The notes under the pieces are model-generated. The model saw only the letters and a program-made list of their open reading frames with translations, searched no databases and was not told the DNA's origin. From Escherichia phage EK8, in sequence record PQ805430.1: DNA of 64,000 nt; one strand, given 5' to 3'. Both the position numbers and the translations under genes were made by a program. How positions within the stretch are numbered: the stretch's first letter is position 1; each line of letters begins with the position of its first letter. Shown one piece after another: positions 1 through 24,992 of the stretch.

Positions 1-79
1 AACGCTTACTCGCACTTGAATCCAAATAATATAAGCCTCTTGGGGGGCTTTTCCATTGAGAATAACAACAGGAGCTACT

Positions 80-2089
80 ATGGAATCTCAATTCCGCCAA
101 CCAAAAAAAGTTATTAATGTCGAAGTTAATAAACAGAGTATTGCTCGTAACTTTGGCATTGGTGATAACGAGGTTTGCTACGCGAAAGCTGGGCAACCTC
201 TAGCAGGCTACAAAGCTATCTACGATAAAGCCAGCCAGCGAGCGTATATGCTTCCTGCTGGCTTGACTGGTACTGTTACGTCTTTTTCCACTGCGGGCGT
301 TCTGACGCATTCTGGTGGCACTGTAGACCTCAGTGCTCTGGCAGTAGAACGAGATGAATACTTTGATCTGAACCAGACGTTTACTTCTGGTGCTACGCTC
401 CAGCGTAAGAATGAGACTATTGGCCTCGGTGCTAAACGTTACCGCTGGGATGGGACACTTCCTAAGTCTATACCATCAGGATCCACCCCTACCTCTACGG
501 GTGGTGTAGGCATTGGAGCATGGATTTCTGTCGGCTATGCGTCATTACGGGAAAATCTTGACCAGAATGAATCTGATATTTCAGGACTGAAAACTACCAC
601 AACTAAAATACAGTCCCAGCACGGAAATAATCATCGGTATAAAGTGCTTTTCGAGTTGCCTTTAAAATTCAGCGCTTACGATGCAGTTTCCGTGGCAAAT
701 GGGTACGAATACTTATACGCAACTGGCCACGCTATTGATCATTCACAAAATGAATTGTGGGTTGTTTATCAGGCGTCTGGAGGTGATACGGCAAACTGGT
801 GGGTGGTATACGACCTTTTGACTCTCACCGAAAAAACATTTTTCAGGGCCGGGAAAAGATGGACAAAATGTTTTTCTCTTATTCATTCTGGTGGAGAAAG
901 ATTCATTTATGCCAGAAGTGCTTCTACTGGTTGGTTGGCTAAGTTTAATGTTACATCACTGCCGGCTTCTGGTACTACAATAACTGAAATGACACCTCCC
1001 AGAGATGAGGTGAAATACATTTACGCTTCTGAATTTAACGGGGAACTTCTTGTTCCTTATGACGCCCCAACTACAAATAGTACAGCGTATTCAAATACCT
1101 TTAATATTCTGGATAAAGATACCTGGGAAATTAAAAGAACTATAAGGATGGATACTATTGGGGCTGGCAACGAATACGGAGCAACGCCTTTACTGTATAA
1201 GAATCAGGGTACTGTAATGTGCGCTGACGGTATAGCTATGGCTTACGGCGGATATTATGACAGTGATAATCCAGGGACGGCAAGTAGTGACCTAAGGGTT
1301 GTTCAGGGTGTTGTTATAAAAAACCCTGATGGAGTGAATATTCTTAATGGATTGTTCGACCCAATCGGTGGAATGTCTATTTTAAACGCATTGGGCAGAT
1401 CAGCAAACAGGTTTGAGACGGAAGGTCTTTATTTTGATTCATACACCGGTAGGCTCACTACGCTTTGGCATTATACGGATGCTGCTGATGGTACGTTCCT
1501 GATTGTTGAGGCTTTTTCTGGTGATGTGAACGCTATCGACATGAAGCCAGCAGCCATAGAGTCGAGGCCACGAGTGCCTGACATTATCTCTCTGTGGCGT
1601 AGTGATTTCCAAAAAAACGTACCGTTAGATCCGAGTACAGGGCAGTCACTCCCGGATGTTATTGATATATGCAAGATGATGATTCGTTATGATCTCAGAA
1701 TGGCGGTATGGTATTCATCCAATTTCAGTGATTTGACATTTAATGGGGATACGTTTAATGGGAGCACTACATTTACATCATCCTCATTTGTAACTCTGGA
1801 AAGAGGAACGAATACTACGTTCTACCTCAGAATAAGAAATTCGGGGATGTATCAGGAATGGTTAATTTTAACCCCTGAGGCCACCCCTTCGTATAGCCAG
1901 TTAGGAATGGTGGCTACTCAGTACAGATTTCAGGGAACAAGCACAGGATTTTTCTGTGGCACCGGAAGCCCTGAGGGCGTTGTAACCGCGTCACCAGGTT
2001 CTATTTATTGCAACCGTTCTGGTGGTGCTTCTGGTAGTGTTTATTTTAAAACATCAGGTTCTGGTAATACGGGGTGGGTAGCTAAATGA
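80..2089 (+). CDS. large virion-associated protein, possible tail fiber/tailspike (function tentative)
   Basis: 670-aa ORF from ATG 80 with AGGAG upstream (track start 56 is TTG); Gly/Ser/Thr/Asn-rich composition; stop overlaps next start (ATGA); lies upstream of lysis cassette; no catalytic motif recognised. Confidence 0.4.
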   Translation: MESQFRQPKKVINVEVNKQSIARNFGIGDNEVCYAKAGQPLAGYKAIYDKASQRAYMLPAGLTGTVTSFSTAGVLTHSGGTVDLSALAVERDEYFDLNQTFTSGATLQRKNETIGLGAKRYRWDGTLPKSIPSGSTPTSTGGVGIGAWISVGYASLRENLDQNESDISGLKTTTTKIQSQHGNNHRYKVLFELPLKFSAYDAVSVANGYEYLYATGHAIDHSQNELWVVYQASGGDTANWWVVYDLLTLTEKTFFRAGKRWTKCFSLIHSGGERFIYARSASTGWLAKFNVTSLPASGTTITEMTPPRDEVKYIYASEFNGELLVPYDAPTTNSTAYSNTFNILDKDTWEIKRTIRMDTIGAGNEYGATPLLYKNQGTVMCADGIAMAYGGYYDSDNPGTASSDLRVVQGVVIKNPDGVNILNGLFDPIGGMSILNALGRSANRFETEGLYFDSYTGRLTTLWHYTDAADGTFLIVEAFSGDVNAIDMKPAAIESRPRVPDIISLWRSDFQKNVPLDPSTGQSLPDVIDICKMMIRYDLRMAVWYSSNFSDLTFNGDTFNGSTTFTSSSFVTLERGTNTTFYLRIRNSGMYQEWLILTPEATPSYSQLGMVATQYRFQGTSTGFFCGTGSPEGVVTASPGSIYCNRSGGASGSVYFKTSGSGNTGWVAK

Positions 2090-2289: not shown

Positions 2290-2412
2290 TAGTCATCCTC
2301 AGCATCTTTTGACGCTGACCACATGATGACAGCAATGAGCACTATGACGGCAGGGATGCCGATTATCAACAGTGCTGTAAACATATGCGATTCCTTTTTA
2401 ATTGGAGGTTTT

Positions 2413-2889
2413 ATGCAACTTACTAATAATGAGCGAGCGTTTCTAAAAATGCTGACTGTTTCTGAAGGAACCAGTACCAGTAAATACACCAAAAATAACG
2501 GTTATGATGTAATCGTTAATGGTATTGGTGGTGAACCGAAGACCTTTACTGACTACAGCAAGCACCCCAATGTGCTGGTCACTGTAAACAACAAAGGTCT
2601 TAAGTCTACCGCTGCTGGGGCATATCAGATTCTTTATAAATACTGGGTTGCCTACAAAAAGCAGCTTGGACTTAAAGGATTCTATCCCGAAGATCAGGAT
2701 GCAATTGCAATGCAATTGATCAAAGAATGTAAGGCCCGTGACGACATTAACGCTGGTCGTATTGAGGCTGCTATCACTAAGTGTCGCTCCCGCTGGGCAT
2801 CTCTGCCTGGTGCAGGCTACGGCCAGTTTGAGCACAAGATGGATACTCTGGTTTCAGCGTATAAAAAAGCTGGGGGTACTGTAGCGTGA
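2413..2889 (+). CDS. endolysin, lambda R-type lytic transglycosylase
   Basis: 158-aa product from ATG 2413 (GGAGG upstream); blocks GYDVIV, KQLGLK, WASLPGAGYGQFEHK, KKAGGTV match lambda R as recalled. Confidence 0.85.
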   Translation: MQLTNNERAFLKMLTVSEGTSTSKYTKNNGYDVIVNGIGGEPKTFTDYSKHPNVLVTVNNKGLKSTAAGAYQILYKYWVAYKKQLGLKGFYPEDQDAIAMQLIKECKARDDINAGRIEAAITKCRSRWASLPGAGYGQFEHKMDTLVSAYKKAGGTVA

Positions 2890-3122
2890 AGCTGCGACTG
2901 GTACAAAACTGGCGATCAGCATGGAAGTGGTACTCAGTCCACATCATGATTGTAATCGTCGCTTTGCCAGAGATCTGGAGCTATTTTCCGCAGGAGTTCA
3001 AAGACTCCCTGCCTCCAGGTGCGTTGAAGTACGCCATGATGTTCCTGGGCGTATCAGCGATTCTGGCTCGCTTGTTCTCTCAGGAGAAGTCCAAAGATGA
3101 TGAACCTGATAAAGACGTATAA
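2886..3122 (+). CDS. putative holin
   Basis: 78 aa, two hydrophobic helices (YSVHIMIVIVALPEIW; ALKYAMMFLGVSAILARLF), charged C-terminus EKSKDDEPDKDV; start overlaps endolysin stop; sits between endolysin and spanins. Confidence 0.5.
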   Translation: MKLRLVQNWRSAWKWYSVHIMIVIVALPEIWSYFPQEFKDSLPPGALKYAMMFLGVSAILARLFSQEKSKDDEPDKDV

Positions 3123-3594
3123 GGTCTATATCGGTTTAGTCCTGGCCCTGGTTATAATAGCCGGGGCTTGTTGGCTAACGTGGACTGTCACGGATTCACG
3201 GTGGCAGTCGAAATATGATTCATTGGAAACACAGTATGCTGATGCTTCCGCAAAGGCCCAGAATGAAGCCAGGGCAAAGGAGTTGGAATATGACCTCAAT
3301 ATCTCTAAAGCCAATGCTGAGGGGGCTAAACGGGAAGCTGAGGCTAATACTGCTGCCGCTGATGCTAATGCTTCTGTTGTCCGGTTGCACCAACGACTCA
3401 ATACGCTACTTGCCAACACCAGCACCGAAACGACCGGCACTGGACTCAAGGGCAGAACCCCCAACGAAACCATCGTTCTGCTTACCAACGTGTTCCAAAA
3501 ATCTGTCGAACGAAATAGACAACTGGCTGAGTTCGCGGATAAAAGCTGGAACGCAGCTAAACAGTGTTATGACAGCTACAATTCGACACGATAA
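3097..3594 (+). CDS. i-spanin (Rz-like)
   Basis: N-terminal TM helix (IGLVLALVIIAGACWL) followed by Ala/Glu/Lys-rich helical periplasmic domain; carries an out-of-frame lipoprotein ORF. Confidence 0.7.
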   Translation: MMNLIKTYKVYIGLVLALVIIAGACWLTWTVTDSRWQSKYDSLETQYADASAKAQNEARAKELEYDLNISKANAEGAKREAEANTAAADANASVVRLHQRLNTLLANTSTETTGTGLKGRTPNETIVLLTNVFQKSVERNRQLAEFADKSWNAAKQCYDSYNSTR

Positions 3595-3616
3595 TTACGC
3601 TAATTATGTTGTTTAA
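3314..3616 (+). CDS. o-spanin (Rz1-like lipoprotein), overlapped with i-spanin gene
   Basis: ATG 3314 gives MLRGLNGKLRLILLPLMLMLLLSG-C: signal peptide with lipobox LSGC; Pro-rich mature part; starts inside Rz-like gene in another frame and ends 22 nt past it. Confidence 0.6.
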   Translation: MLRGLNGKLRLILLPLMLMLLLSGCTNDSIRYLPTPAPKRPALDSRAEPPTKPSFCLPTCSKNLSNEIDNWLSSRIKAGTQLNSVMTATIRHDNYANYVV

Positions 3617-19277: not shown

Positions 19278-20318
19278 TTAATGCCAGAGTTCTTTGCTGT
19301 TACGAGCGATCCAGTCCTTCATCGCTTCATGCTGGATGAGTGAATCGTCACGCGCCATGATGTGACGGAATGCGATTACCTGGTACTCCATCAGCATACG
19401 CTCGATGTACGGCACCAGTTTATCGATGTTGTCCTTATTGGCGTGCTGAGCCATTGAACCGGCTACAGCGTAAACCAGCGACGGATTATCATCGCTTTCC
19501 GGGCAACGGGCTTTCAGCGGGTCTGCCAGAATGTCAGCCAGCTTCGGCACCTGGTCGAAGATTTTACAGAATGCAATAAATTCAGCACCTACACCAGATG
19601 AGATACAGCCAGCCACCAGCGGCAGGTCAGCATCAGTTACCGGTTCGCCACGGATCAGCTTATCCAGGAACATCCAGGTACGCGGAGCAGCGAAGGTCAG
19701 GTCGTCGTGGTCAGGCTTGAAGTGATGCACATAGTCCGGTTTGAACTCCAGAAACGCAGCGATACGATAATCGATATTCTGCGTCAGGGCATACTTCATG
19801 AAGCAATCCAGGTTGGTATACACCTGGAAGTTGATCATACGAGACTGCAACGGAGTTGGTAACGGGTTAACGATGGCACCATCGTCTTCCATGTTACCGG
19901 CAGCGGCCAGGAGTGCATGGGAGTGCAGCTTACGCTGGCCTACCATTTTATCCAGGATCAGCTTGAATGCAGCAGCCTGTACGGACGGAGCCGCAGACGG
20001 CAGTTCATCCAGGAATACCAGCCAGCCTTTGTAGCCTTCGGGGATAGAATCCCCTTCGACCGGGAATACGTCGAACGGTACATACTCCGCAATGTTGCGG
20101 GCACCGGACGTGTTGAAGTATGGCAGACCGTTCATGTCAGCAGGGTCATACGTGCTCAGACGCACGTCAATGACCTTGAGGCTGAACTTTTCTGCGATGG
20201 TGCGAATGATATCGGATTTACCGATGGCAGGTGATCCATGCAGCATAGGCACCAGACGTTTTTTGAGCACACGTTCTACGAACGGGATGGAGTGATCCAG
20301 ACGGACTTGGGTTGTCAT
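19278..20318 (-). CDS. AAA+ ATPase (MoxR/CobS-like)
   Basis: Walker A LHGSPAIGKSD; Walker B LVFLDELP. Confidence 0.7.
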   Translation of the reverse strand: MTTQVRLDHSIPFVERVLKKRLVPMLHGSPAIGKSDIIRTIAEKFSLKVIDVRLSTYDPADMNGLPYFNTSGARNIAEYVPFDVFPVEGDSIPEGYKGWLVFLDELPSAAPSVQAAAFKLILDKMVGQRKLHSHALLAAAGNMEDDGAIVNPLPTPLQSRMINFQVYTNLDCFMKYALTQNIDYRIAAFLEFKPDYVHHFKPDHDDLTFAAPRTWMFLDKLIRGEPVTDADLPLVAGCISSGVGAEFIAFCKIFDQVPKLADILADPLKARCPESDDNPSLVYAVAGSMAQHANKDNIDKLVPYIERMLMEYQVIAFRHIMARDDSLIQHEAMKDWIARNSKELWH

Positions 20319-20320
20319 AA

Positions 20321-21088
20321 CTATACCTGTAAGAAGTAACGGTGAATGAGTTGATTCACAACACGGACGCCAATAGCATTCGTCTTGTAGACCATTTTAA
20401 GTTGGGCCTGCACTTCGTTGATGACCTTCTTCTTGTACTGGCTTAAGTTCTTGCCAGTACCGAACGCCTTAATGTACTCGTCCAGTAAACGAGACTCCGG
20501 CACCAGGTCGAGAAGGGATTGCAGGGACGGTCGGATGGTACTGAAATGCAGTGCCACACGTCCTAAAAATTCTGTACGCACACCCAGTTCACGCATACGG
20601 TCGTGGGTGAGGTTAGCTTCGCCATTGAAAGCACCAGCGAACACGAATAATACGTGCTCAACGGAGACTTTCTCGTACTTGCCATAGTCACCAAAGACAC
20701 TGGCGGTACTGCTTTCCAGCATGGTGAGGAACTCGTTCTGGACACCGGCCAGAGCTTCGTGAGTCTCACCGCCTACGCCATTGGTAAACAGCTTATCGAA
20801 CTCGTCTACGAAGATTACGATGCCGTTTACCCCGACCATTCCCCGGAGGGGAGCCAGGGCTTTGGATAACGAGTTACCCGATACACCTTCTTTGGTTAAA
20901 CCAGCAGCGTTGACTTCCAGCATCTGAATTTCACGCTCTTTGGCGAGAGTCGAGATCAGGTGAGATTTACCAGATCCTGATTCACCCGACAGGATGAAGT
21001 GAGGGCGGATCGCACCTTTAGATTTAGTGTAAGCATCAAAGACGCGGCCTAATACGCCCGCAACTTCTTCTTGTTCTGGGAGAATCAT
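20321..21088 (-). CDS. P-loop ATPase (AAA-like)
   Basis: Walker A SGESGSGKSHL; Walker B IVIFVDEFDKL. Confidence 0.65.
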   Translation of the reverse strand: MILPEQEEVAGVLGRVFDAYTKSKGAIRPHFILSGESGSGKSHLISTLAKEREIQMLEVNAAGLTKEGVSGNSLSKALAPLRGMVGVNGIVIFVDEFDKLFTNGVGGETHEALAGVQNEFLTMLESSTASVFGDYGKYEKVSVEHVLFVFAGAFNGEANLTHDRMRELGVRTEFLGRVALHFSTIRPSLQSLLDLVPESRLLDEYIKAFGTGKNLSQYKKKVINEVQAQLKMVYKTNAIGVRVVNQLIHRYFLQV

Positions 21089-21159
21089 AGATACCTCGAA
21101 TTAGGTTCAGGTGCCTACTCACGGTCGGCAGGGACTTTCATATTTCAGCACCAGAGGGA

Positions 21160-21552
21160 TTAACGACAGTCGAACGCAATACCGAATTGCTTCTGGCCTT
21201 CGTAGCGGAATACGCCATAGAAGCCCGCATACTGGCCTGTGCCTTTGCTGAACAGCAGACCAATGTTGTTGTAGCCCTGTATACCAGAAGGCTTCTGGAT
21301 GATGAGCTGAGGCGACACCATTGCTACTTTGCCTTTCGCGTTAATCACGGTGAATCGGTCACCCTGATCACGGATGAAGGAGATGGCCAACGGCTGATCC
21401 GGTTTACCCGTTTCAGTGCGAACAGCCTGACACCAGAGATCAGTAGCCGGGGCGGAGGCAACCGCCGTAACCTGCGTAGCAGGTGTAGGCTGGTTGACGA
21501 CGCACCCAGCAAGAGAAAAAACAGCGACAGCAACGAGAATAAGTTTTTTCAT
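21160..21552 (-). CDS. lipoprotein
   Basis: MKKLILVAVAVFSLAG-C signal peptide with lipobox LAGC; second Cys at C-terminus. Confidence 0.7.
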   Translation of the reverse strand: MKKLILVAVAVFSLAGCVVNQPTPATQVTAVASAPATDLWCQAVRTETGKPDQPLAISFIRDQGDRFTVINAKGKVAMVSPQLIIQKPSGIQGYNNIGLLFSKGTGQYAGFYGVFRYEGQKQFGIAFDCR

Positions 21553-21723
21553 TTCTTAACTTCCGGTACGAATTGCATTACACAATTCTGGTTTCGAGGT
21601 ATGTTGAGTTCGCACTCATCACGTTTTTGTGTAAGTTCACTAGTTACTGTCCAATAGGTCAGCAAACCCATAAGAAATGCTCCCAACACTAAACCAATAA
21701 CAAATTCCGGTTTATGATTCATC
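21552..21723 (-). CDS. small membrane protein (57 aa), coupled to lipoprotein gene
   Basis: hand-translated MNHKPEFVIGLVLGAFLMGLLTYW...; TGA overlaps lipoprotein ATG (ATGA); not in ORF track (<60 aa). Confidence 0.35.
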
Positions 21724-22044
21724 TTTGATGCCCCTTAAACCAGGGATTGAGTTAAGCCGGGAGATGTATTCACCGATGTAAAACAACTCATTAATTTCAT
21801 CTTGCGTACAAATTAATTTATTGCCTGCATCAGTGATGATTTCCCAGGTTGGTATGAATACTAAAGCCGGGATACCATTGCCTTCACGCAGAACGAACGC
21901 ATTACCGCAACGGCGACCATCTTTAGTGAAAAGCTGGCGACCAACCTCTACTACGCCATCAGGCTTATAAGCAGTGGCCCATTCGGGTAAAACTTCACGT
22001 TTGAATTGCTCATTTTGATCTTCAAAGTAATCTTCAAAGCTCAT
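21712..22044 (-). CDS. hypothetical protein
   Basis: 110-aa ORF. Confidence 0.5.
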   Translation of the reverse strand: MSFEDYFEDQNEQFKREVLPEWATAYKPDGVVEVGRQLFTKDGRRCGNAFVLREGNGIPALVFIPTWEIITDAGNKLICTQDEINELFYIGEYISRLNSIPGLRGIKDES

Positions 22045-22403
22045 ACCTGCTCCTTCTTGGCACGCTGCATTCGTTTACAATTCTCTTTCTGGCTTACCAG
22101 TTCGAGGTGTTCCGGATTACAGCAGAGACGGTTACGGCATTTATGATCCACCTGCTTATTGCCGGGGATGTAGCCGAAGTAATGGGTAGCCATGACGATG
22201 TGAGTAGCACACGTCTGGCTGTTAATACTGATACGGCCATAACCTCCACCACGTCCTTCGCCCGAAGTGGGGCCAGTCCAGATATGACAAGGGGATACGA
22301 CACCGTTAACGCGATAACCGCAGTCACGGATATCCACCCGCTTCATGATACGGTCGCAGATTTCCTGACGACGATCAGGATGGGGATGTTTTTTCGTGAT
22401 CAC
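22041..22403 (-). CDS. HNH endonuclease
   Basis: Cys/His-rich core QVDHKCRNRLCCNPEHLELVSQKEN. Confidence 0.8.
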   Translation of the reverse strand: MITKKHPHPDRRQEICDRIMKRVDIRDCGYRVNGVVSPCHIWTGPTSGEGRGGGYGRISINSQTCATHIVMATHYFGYIPGNKQVDHKCRNRLCCNPEHLELVSQKENCKRMQRAKKEQV

Positions 22404-22654
22404 TTTGAATCCAGAAATAGTAGGGCTTGCTCCAGATATAACCGAAGGTCAAGCAGTTCGTCATGATAGAGGAAGAGGCTATGAAACTTGTCGTGATACA
22501 TACTGCGCCCATGTTCAGTAGTCGAGTAATACTCTTCATGTAGTTCCAGTTTGTACCTGGAATCCTTCCTCCTGGTTTCTTTGGTGATTGTTACCGTCAC
22601 CGTACCATTGGTATGACGACGTTCGATCACTTGGGTCATACTGTCCATAAACAC
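22400..22654 (-). CDS. hypothetical protein
   Basis: 84-aa ORF, ATGA overlap with HNH gene. Confidence 0.45.
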   Translation of the reverse strand: MFMDSMTQVIERRHTNGTVTVTITKETRRKDSRYKLELHEEYYSTTEHGRSMYHDKFHSLFLYHDELLDLRLYLEQALLFLDSK

Positions 22655-23964: not shown

Positions 23965-23995
23965 AAAAAGTAGGACACCCTAAGATGGGGTGTCC
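23965..23995 (-). terminator. rho-independent terminator (minus strand)
   Basis: 8-bp stem GGACACCC/GGGTGTCC, A-run on plus side. Confidence 0.55.
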
Positions 23996-24059
23996 TTTCA
24001 GAAAGTAAAAACTAAGTTATGCAGACGCAGAGCGTCATTCATTAAACGCACGGAGTGCG

Positions 24060-24971: not shown

Positions 24972-24992
24972 AGCCACCCCGAAGGGGTGGCT
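24972..24992 (-). terminator. hairpin terminator (minus strand)
   Basis: 9-bp stem AGCCACCCC/GGGGTGGCT with GAA loop immediately after upstream stop. Confidence 0.5.

Follow-up and report, generated by a model that had tools for sequence, protein, structure and literature searches.

Overlapping genes for a small membrane protein and a predicted outer-membrane lipoprotein in a variable island of the N4-like Escherichia phage EK8

Introduction

A stretch of 64,000 nucleotides of Escherichia phage EK8 (sequence record PQ805430.1) was analysed, and this whole stretch is referred to as the window. On its minus strand, between positions 21160 and 21723, the gene for a 57-residue membrane protein overlaps the gene for a 130-residue lipoprotein. 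We tentatively favour two separate envelope-targeting accessory genes, and not a dedicated two-component machine, as the best overall explanation of this arrangement. Parts of this proposal are firmer than the whole: it is very likely that the pair is not a lysis module, and probable that the two genes do not form an obligate pair. Databases already list both, under the labels 'putative lipoprotein' and 'hypothetical protein'. They are not discussed in the literature searched, in which the paper on Pectobacterium phage CB1 mentions lipoproteins solely for spanins. New here are the barrel predicted for the lipoprotein, including a conserved pair of cysteines, the invariant peptide of the membrane protein, which is under protein-level selection, and the mosaic island in which both genes lie.

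By sequence, the window represents most of an N4-like genome (Schitoviridae), from a new relative near the genus Cbunavirus. This assignment follows from the closest megablast relatives of positions 1–25000, Kosakonia phage Kc283 and the Pectobacterium CB1/phiA41/Nepra group (~79% identity over about half of the query), and from a 3696-residue open reading frame (ORF) of a size typical of virion RNA polymerase (vRNAP).

Anatomy and conservation of the lipoprotein

The preliminary description of this locus had read it as a 57-residue ORF with a single transmembrane (TM) helix, ending in ATGA on a 130-residue lipoprotein with the lipobox LAGC. ORF coordinates, hydrophobicity, AlphaFold2 models, PF08139 and PHROG 26640 all bear this out (Table 1). 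The N-terminus of the lipoprotein, MKKLILVAVAVFSLAG, runs directly into C17 of the lipobox; the lipid-attachment profile matches this segment with E=0.004, short of the Pfam cutoff, and L14, G16 and C17 are invariant in the alignment of closer homologues. The whole protein (residues 1–130) matches PHROG 26640, annotated 'lipoprotein', with E=5.5e-46. It shares the features of this family (CB1_34, Kc283 gp26), namely the full-length match, Cys41 and Cys129, and the SKGxGxYxGFYG motif that is near-invariant in the beta domain, and it is 58–60% identical to the 'putative lipoprotein' of Pectobacterium and Kosakonia N4-like phages. In E. coli, lipoproteins without Asp at position +2 are sorted to the outer membrane. 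As no lipobox-bearing family member has Asp at +2, and the window protein has Val, the lipoprotein is predicted to be transferred to the outer membrane.

In the AlphaFold2 model, the predicted local distance difference test (pLDDT) score is below 50 at residues 1–22 and 27–34 and there is no secondary structure before residue 39. Residues 39–130 form nine strands, with 10-residue block means of pLDDT 94–97 from residue 41 onwards; this 92-residue beta domain makes up most of the 114-residue mature protein. A Foldseek search of the PDB with this model gave no match at E<=1e-3, with fatty-acid-binding proteins and lipocalins leading at ~0.05. On these best fold matches, all weak, the domain is modelled as a small meander beta-barrel. 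In BFVD, every match of the barrel is a phage protein: the Pectobacterium phage homologue, the KP8 protein and others, likewise uncharacterised. Pfam searches of all 30 members of the lipoprotein family found the lipid-attachment site only, the rest being noise. Across these 30 sequences, which extend down to 26% identity, only C41, G104 and C129 are invariant in the domain. Because the two cysteines are invariant and bracket the barrel, they probably form a periplasmic disulfide.

The family is small, with 19 clusters in a word-indexed search of 5.8 billion proteins and 22 representatives in an exhaustive profile search of 1.84 billion representative proteins. The cluster members examined lie on contigs of at most ~78 kb, phage-sized or shorter, and a scan of one genome per bacterial species yielded nothing credible as a bacterial homologue. 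Hence the family is tiny and phage-only. The sole bacterial candidate, a contig of an Anaerolineaceae metagenome-assembled genome, was rejected, as it carries no ORF resembling the lipoprotein. The GenBank note of CB1 refers to an Enterobacter WP_ protein; a bacterial origin was set aside given the contig sizes above.

The homologues found mark the lipoprotein gene as real and under protein-level selection. It diverges faster than the adjacent ATPase gene (92 vs 99%, 73 vs 84% and 48–53 vs 84% identity), as host-interaction genes typically do. The CB1 virion proteome does not contain the homologue CB1_34. For this reason the label 'adhesin', given in GenBank to Kc283 gp26 (L001 4001..4390; 'lipoprotein' in RefSeq), is unsupported.

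A membrane protein with an invariant C-terminal peptide

The 57-residue protein (MNHKPEFVIGLVLGAFLMGLLTYWTVTSELTQKRDECELNIPRNQNCVMQFVPEVKK) has a single hydrophobic stretch at residues 8–26, with a mean Kyte-Doolittle value of 1.99 in the best 19-residue window. AlphaFold2 models one long helix over residues 5–40, with pLDDT 82–91 in the hydrophobic part. It matches phrog_7508 with E=6.7e-20 and has the two features of this family (G7C gp17.1), a single TM helix and an invariant ECELNIPRNQNCVMQFVPE tail. Homologues were found in 72 database clusters and, by tblastn, in 96 phage records, including Gamaleyavirus (G7C gp17.1) and Klebsiella, Shigella, Erwinia and Enterobacter N4-like phages; none of the records matched belonged to Pectobacterium or Kosakonia phages.

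Across 73 sequences the helix is variable, and E36-C-E-L-x-I-P-R-N-Q-N-C-x-M-x-F-x-P-E54 is invariant. In 18 coding sequences, synonymous variation was seen at nearly all codons of the ECELNIPRNQNCVMQFVPE motif, with Leu encoded by four different codons, while the residues stay fixed. The constraint thus acts on the peptide at the protein level, and a conserved DNA or RNA element was rejected as the explanation, since synonymous sites vary freely. Together with the 72 clusters, the invariant motif and this free synonymous variation mark the 57-residue frame as a real gene. Most likely, the peptide serves to dock on a conserved partner, either of the host or of the phage. Overall, we place high confidence in the anatomy and localisation of the two proteins as described here.

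Each gene also occurs without the other

The pair had been described as translationally coupled. The overlap is indeed present, but a fixed two-gene unit is not, as each gene occurs without the other and with other partners, and the overlap itself is ordinary. A rough greedy gene set of the window has 62 same-strand junctions, of which ~25 (~40%) overlap, ten of them by 4 nt, and the three genes upstream of the lipoprotein gene (HNH, 110-residue and 57-residue protein) are likewise chained by 4- and 11-nt overlaps. The ATGA is therefore ordinary packing of this operon and not distinctive. A Shine-Dalgarno-like GGAAG run lies ~8 nt upstream of the lipoprotein ATG. No canonical slippery heptamer for a frameshift fusion is visible at the overlap in the sequence, which was inspected by eye only.

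Fewer than half of the phage records with a barrel gene (11/27) carry the 57-residue family, the other 16/27 being without it; conversely, the barrel occurs in ~11/96 records that carry the 57-residue family and is lacking from ~85/96. The lipoprotein is encoded without the membrane protein in all Cbunavirus records (Kc283 and CB1-like; 16 Pectobacterium and Kosakonia records) and also in the metagenomic relatives L019, L023, L025, L026, L027, L036 and L037. Its upstream neighbour varies accordingly: a gene for a conserved 105-residue protein in Kc283, the HNH gene in CB1, where an ATGA overlap of its own is found, and homologues of N4 gp19 and the SPFH lipoprotein gp20 in L019, L023 and L026, in the place of the 57-residue gene of the window. 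The 57-residue family, in turn, is overlap-coupled to a 2-TM protein similar to N4 gp23 in P184 and the KP8-like phages and to gp17.2 in G7C. In L030, an 82%-identical copy is ATGA-coupled to an unrelated VG64-type lipoprotein with Asp at +2.

Both genes are present in the window and in L029, a near-identical contig with an identical lipoprotein. They are found in the same order and with the same 4-nt overlap (gp9/gp8) in Erwinia phage MIF8 (Efbeekayvirus), where the lipoprotein is ~40% identical. All 10 KP8-like Klebsiella records keep the 57-residue family and a secreted barrel homologue, with a gp23-like gene between them, the two genes being 200–500 bp apart in the five records with coordinates in both lists. 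L035 has both within 300 bp, in the order barrel, 99-residue protein, membrane protein. Such proximity is expected whenever both are present, because genes of this kind all occupy a single slot, flanked by the HNH gene and the ATPase genes. We consider the two genes to be independent cassettes; they may have some functional affinity, which we rate as secondary.

Genomic context and timing of expression

Between the HNH and ATPase genes, N4-like phages have a hypervariable island of genes directed at the envelope, and the two genes sit there (Table 1). Homologues of the PHROG 9905 protein adjoin the membrane-protein gene, the barrel gene or both in Kc283, P184, L019, L035 and L036. An AAA+ ATPase gene lies directly downstream of the lipoprotein gene in Kc283, phiA41 (L020), L019, L022, L023, L025, L026, L029, L036 and L037, and after one inserted gene in L021 and L027; CB1 and MIF8 have a gp24-type ATPase there instead. 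In N4 the same slot holds gp18, a P22 gp17-type 'superinfection exclusion' family protein (PF17420), the small 2-TM protein gp19, the SPFH lipoprotein gp20 and the 2-TM protein gp23. The N4 gp19 gene overlaps that of gp20 (a 278-residue Band_7/SPFH lipoprotein) by 8 nt (L024 1558..2593), and this gp19/gp20 pair stands directly upstream of the barrel lipoprotein in two close relatives of the window phage (L019 1903..2935 and L026 1903..2935). G7C encodes there a secreted 108-residue protein, gp17.3 (L003 4348..4674). Because the slot holds other envelope proteins in N4 and G7C, N4-like phages can be said to keep their swappable envelope-directed proteins in this island.

Table 1. Position of the two genes, their neighbours and the lysis genes in the window
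Feature	Position	Strand	Assignment or basis
57-aa bitopic small membrane protein	21549..21722	-	PHROG 7508 family; G7C gp17.1 / P184 gp38 homologue
TM helix of 57-aa protein, aa 8-26	21645..21701	-	hydrophobicity and AlphaFold2
Invariant C-terminal peptide ECELNIPRNQNCVMQFVPE, aa 36-54, two invariant Cys	21561..21617	-	alignment
ATGA stop/start overlap of 57-aa protein and lipoprotein genes	21549..21552	-	sequence, ORF coordinates
130-aa lipoprotein precursor	21160..21552	-	PHROG 26640; CB1_34 / Kc283 gp26 homologue
Predicted signal peptide II, lipobox LAGC, lipidated Cys17, Val at +2	21502..21552	-	PF08139, aa 1-17
Pro/Ala/Thr-rich tether, aa 18-38 (VVNQPTPATQVTAVASAPATD)	21439..21501	-	low pLDDT, conserved low complexity
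Predicted all-beta domain (small barrel), aa 39-130	21163..21438	-	AlphaFold2, invariant Cys41/Cys129
Conserved 110-aa protein (PHROG 9905), 11-nt overlap with 57-aa gene downstream	21712..22044	-	ORF list, PHROG
HNH endonuclease, left border of variable island	22041..22403	-	PF13392, E=4e-17
AAA+ ATPase, 255 aa, right-hand neighbour of lipoprotein gene	20321..21088	-	PF00004 and PF07724
Endolysin	2323..2889	+	translation, PHROG
Holin	2886..3122	+	translation, PHROG
Rz-like i-spanin, 165 aa	3097..3594	+	translation, PHROG
o-spanin lipoprotein	~3314..3616	+	translation, PHROG Rz-like spanin match

The pair is co-directional with, and downstream of, the RNA polymerase II (RNAPII) genes, and is followed by ATPase and replication genes; structural and lysis genes are on the opposite strand. 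In N4, early and middle transcripts run rightward and late transcripts, including lysis, leftward (PMC4496689). From this synteny with an N4-like operon, both are inferred to be early or middle genes, expressed with the replication genes well before lysis. No terminator-like hairpin was found on the gene strand between ~23700 and the lipoprotein gene. No sigma-70 promoters were found on that strand, as expected for RNAPII-transcribed genes. Strong terminator-like hairpins lie upstream of the operon, at 24972..24992 and 23972..23996 (-).

Some further features of the locus were noted. A 156-residue antisense ORF (21187..21657, +) covers parts of both genes. It exceeds either in length and was selected when genes were called naively by longest ORF, but is most likely a shadow ORF. 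The HNH gene is the only part of 20300–22500 with cross-genus megablast matches, its flanks being unmatched. It matches Pectobacterium, Kosakonia and Enterobacter phages (including the 248-kb SonariX) at 83–87%, and Achromobacter phages over short stretches, and looks like a horizontally mobile, homing-type gene that marks the island edge. The VG64-type lipoprotein (130 residues; L030 873..1265, also L021 3392..3784) has the lipobox LTGC and, given its Asp at +2, would be retained in the inner membrane. Pfam assigns it to PF25682 Phage_VG64, yet PHROG 478 labels it a recombination directionality factor, probably a mis-annotation of an exported protein.

A complete lysis cassette lies elsewhere

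It had been noted previously that a Rz/Rz1-like pair is present at 3097..3616 and that the overlapping genes studied here are therefore not needed for lysis. The first statement holds, and the pair is not needed as spanins. PHROG matches place the Rz/Rz1-like pair in a complete lysis cassette (2323..3616, +), ~18 kb away and on the opposite, late strand, and the 57-residue protein and lipoprotein have no spanin features. Homologues among spanin-type lysis proteins, which would have spoken against a separate role, were looked for in PHROG and Pfam, and neither protein gave a spanin match; a hit to O_Spanin_T7 in one of the 30 lipoprotein-family members (E=0.19) is at chance level. An i-spanin has a TM helix followed by a long periplasmic coiled-coil domain of ~90 residues or more, and 31 residues follow the helix of the 57-residue protein. 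An o-spanin is short, Pro-rich and largely unstructured, and the lipoprotein has a folded 92-residue beta domain. The presence of a complete, spanin-bearing cassette elsewhere and on the other strand is the reason why we exclude the pair as a lysis module with considerable assurance.

Within the cassette, the o-spanin frame runs 22 nt beyond the end of the i-spanin gene, which makes the two genes overlapped and not embedded. At 133 residues, the mechanically called o-spanin ORF (3215..3616, +) greatly exceeds the likely product, whose start lies near 3314 (MLRGLNGKLRLILLPLMLMLLLSGC). For CB1, too, unusual spanin sizes have been noted.

Proposed function and alternative explanations

In the proposed model, the lipoprotein would be exported, receive its lipid at Cys17 and be sorted to the inner leaflet of the outer membrane, where a flexible tether of ~21 residues would hang the 92-residue barrel in the periplasm. 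The barrel would bind a periplasm-facing component of the envelope. The infected cell could be altered such that later phages cannot complete entry, or the envelope could be kept intact through a long N4-type infection. The 57-residue protein would insert in the inner membrane via its one helix and present the 19-residue ECELNIPRNQNCVMQFVPE peptide. Superinfection exclusion, as suggested in the preliminary description, is plausible by analogy, following the logic of T5 Llp or T4 Spackle with an unrelated fold. Exclusion or an entry block is ranked first among the functions considered because early proteins of lytic phages that face the periplasm and do not serve lysis find their best precedent there (T5 Llp, T4 Imm, Spackle); as a specific function it is possible and still rather doubtful.

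Several observations weigh against this model. Searches of NCBIfam, PADLOC and PDB sequences were empty, and there is no homology to any exclusion protein. The lipoprotein gene is ~19 kb from a tailspike-like ORF (56..2089, +) on the other strand, whereas the T5 llp gene adjoins oad, the gene for the cognate receptor-binding protein. The 57-residue family and the barrel recur together in four lineages (window/L029, MIF8, KP8-like and L035). Residues 36–54 of the 57-residue protein have pLDDT 50–69 and no confident fold; a low-confidence tail is nevertheless what the model of a docking peptide would lead one to expect. The charge bias of the 57-residue protein favours N-in/C-out for the window sequence and N-out/C-in for the KP8-like subfamily. 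Finally, some relatives of the lipoprotein have an ordinary signal peptide without a lipobox and are predicted to be secreted (KP8-like phages, P0111 and possibly P0110), among them the 119-residue protein of KP8-like Klebsiella phages, related to the lipoprotein at an hhalign probability of 96%. Since secreted members exist, the barrel would work in the periplasm whether anchored or not, with outer-membrane anchoring non-essential.

The four shared lineages lead to the question of whether the proteins act jointly, as an envelope-spanning or Imm/Spackle-like two-component unit in which the peptide binds the barrel and coupling sets the ratio. The conserved order and overlap in the distant MIF8, the retention of both genes in all KP8-like records and their closeness in L035 could be read in this way, and the invariant cysteine pair of the peptide would suit a periplasmic disulfide loop. 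Against this, most carriers of either gene lack the other, the membrane protein is overlap-coupled to three unrelated partners, the gene order differs in L035, and confinement of accessory genes to one slot makes proximity expected. Furthermore, the part beyond the helix measures only ~31 residues, and the motif does not vary, in contrast to the highly variable barrel. We regard such a unit as unlikely. It is more speculative, and less likely again, that the 57-residue protein, the gp23-like 2-TM protein and the barrel are remnants of one ancestral N4-like envelope module, in which the peptide would be a sensor or anchor and the barrel the periplasmic effector. Such a module would block the apparatus by which a second phage ejects its DNA and vRNAP, could supply the superinfection signal for N4-type lysis inhibition, and would stand as a novel counterpart to T4 Imm, Spackle and RI with an unrelated fold.

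A lysis-related role, as a second spanin pair or an antiholin-type regulator of N4-type lysis inhibition, is suggested by the superficial Rz/Rz1-like appearance of a membrane protein and an outer-membrane lipoprotein with overlapping genes. In addition, N4 lysis inhibition is triggered by superinfection with its sensor still to be found, according to a preprint (bioRxiv 10.1101/2025.11.12.688109). The Rz-like i-/o-spanin cassette elsewhere, the lack of spanin matches for the pair, the 57-residue protein without a long periplasmic coiled coil, the folded barrel and the early/middle strand all argue against it; moreover, the N4 rapid-lysis mutations discussed in the preprint text lie outside this region, and gp18 to gp23 do not appear in it (bioRxiv 10.1101/2025.11.12.688109). 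This is the least likely of the explanations weighed here. Hardly better is the proposal that the barrel inhibits a periplasmic peptidoglycan hydrolase, with an MliC/PliC-like fold and a Spackle-like role in protecting the wall of the infected cell against enzymes of the host or of incoming phages. MliC is likewise a lipoprotein barrel, and the secreted G7C-like protein of the same slot, gp17.3, has a weak match to Rap1a (E=1.4e-3, below the cutoff), a type VI secretion immunity protein against a peptidoglycan amidase. On the other hand, no lysozyme inhibitor is among the Foldseek matches listed for the barrel, and MliC gave no Pfam match in the 30 family members even at E<=5. Lastly, the barrel may be a small calycin- or lipocalin-like ligand-binding outer-membrane lipoprotein that binds a lipid or envelope precursor and adjusts envelope homeostasis, as E. 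coli Blc does; this is improbable, at about the level of the ancestral module.

Two separate envelope-targeting accessory genes, with exclusion as the first candidate function, thus remain our preferred explanation. Phages of the N4-like group serve in therapy and biocontrol against Klebsiella, E. coli, Pectobacterium and Pseudomonas, and hardly any of their small accessory genes has been characterised. Should the barrel indeed exclude other phages, it would affect phage behaviour in cocktails and would represent a new fold among the few known phage proteins that block receptors or entry. The 19-residue peptide, invariant across genera, offers a compact handle to find a conserved host target, and the island shows where N4-like phages keep envelope-directed genes.

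Comparison with known systems

As in Rz/Rz1, the gene for an inner-membrane protein overlaps that for an outer-membrane lipoprotein; unlike in Rz/Rz1, the membrane protein is much too short in its periplasmic part, the lipoprotein is a large, folded protein, and the genes are outside the cassette on the other strand. A similar partial likeness exists to the N4 genes gp19/gp20 and gp23, which occupy the same slot between the RNAPII genes and the gp24 ATPase gene and in which a small-membrane-protein gene also overlaps a lipoprotein gene, although the protein families (2-TM gp19; 278-residue Band_7 lipoprotein) are unrelated. With MliC/PliC and the lipocalin Blc, the lipoprotein shares the predicted form of a small meander beta-barrel that is periplasmic or anchored to the outer membrane.

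T4 Imm (inner-membrane) and Spackle (periplasmic) are early superinfection-exclusion proteins, each able to act alone. The products of the window genes resemble them as one small inner-membrane and one periplasmic protein of a lytic phage. They differ in having no detected homology to them (Pfam, PHROG, PDB), in the predicted barrel, where Spackle is helical, and in the overlap of their genes, as the T4 genes are not overlap-coupled.

A parallel in location exists with T5 Llp and with Cor of phi80/N15/T1-type phages, lipoproteins of the outer membrane by which FhuA is blocked. Like these, the window protein is a small phage lipoprotein with an outer-membrane sorting signal, a predicted periplasmic exposure and cysteines that could form a disulfide; its gene lies outside the lysis genes and is presumably expressed earlier than they are. 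The similarity to Llp and Cor ends with the signal peptide and tether, secreted members exist in the family, and the gene is not beside a receptor-binding gene. The match to the Cor PHROG (phrog_1119, E=3e-4) covers residues 1–47 only, made up of the signal peptide and tether; searches of Pfam and of PDB sequences found no homology of the mature domain to Llp or Cor, and neither is among the fold matches listed for the barrel. By these comparisons the lipoprotein is not a member of the Llp, Cor, spanin or MliC families and has no sequence or fold relative with known function. It would work from the same place as Llp and Cor, outside their families.

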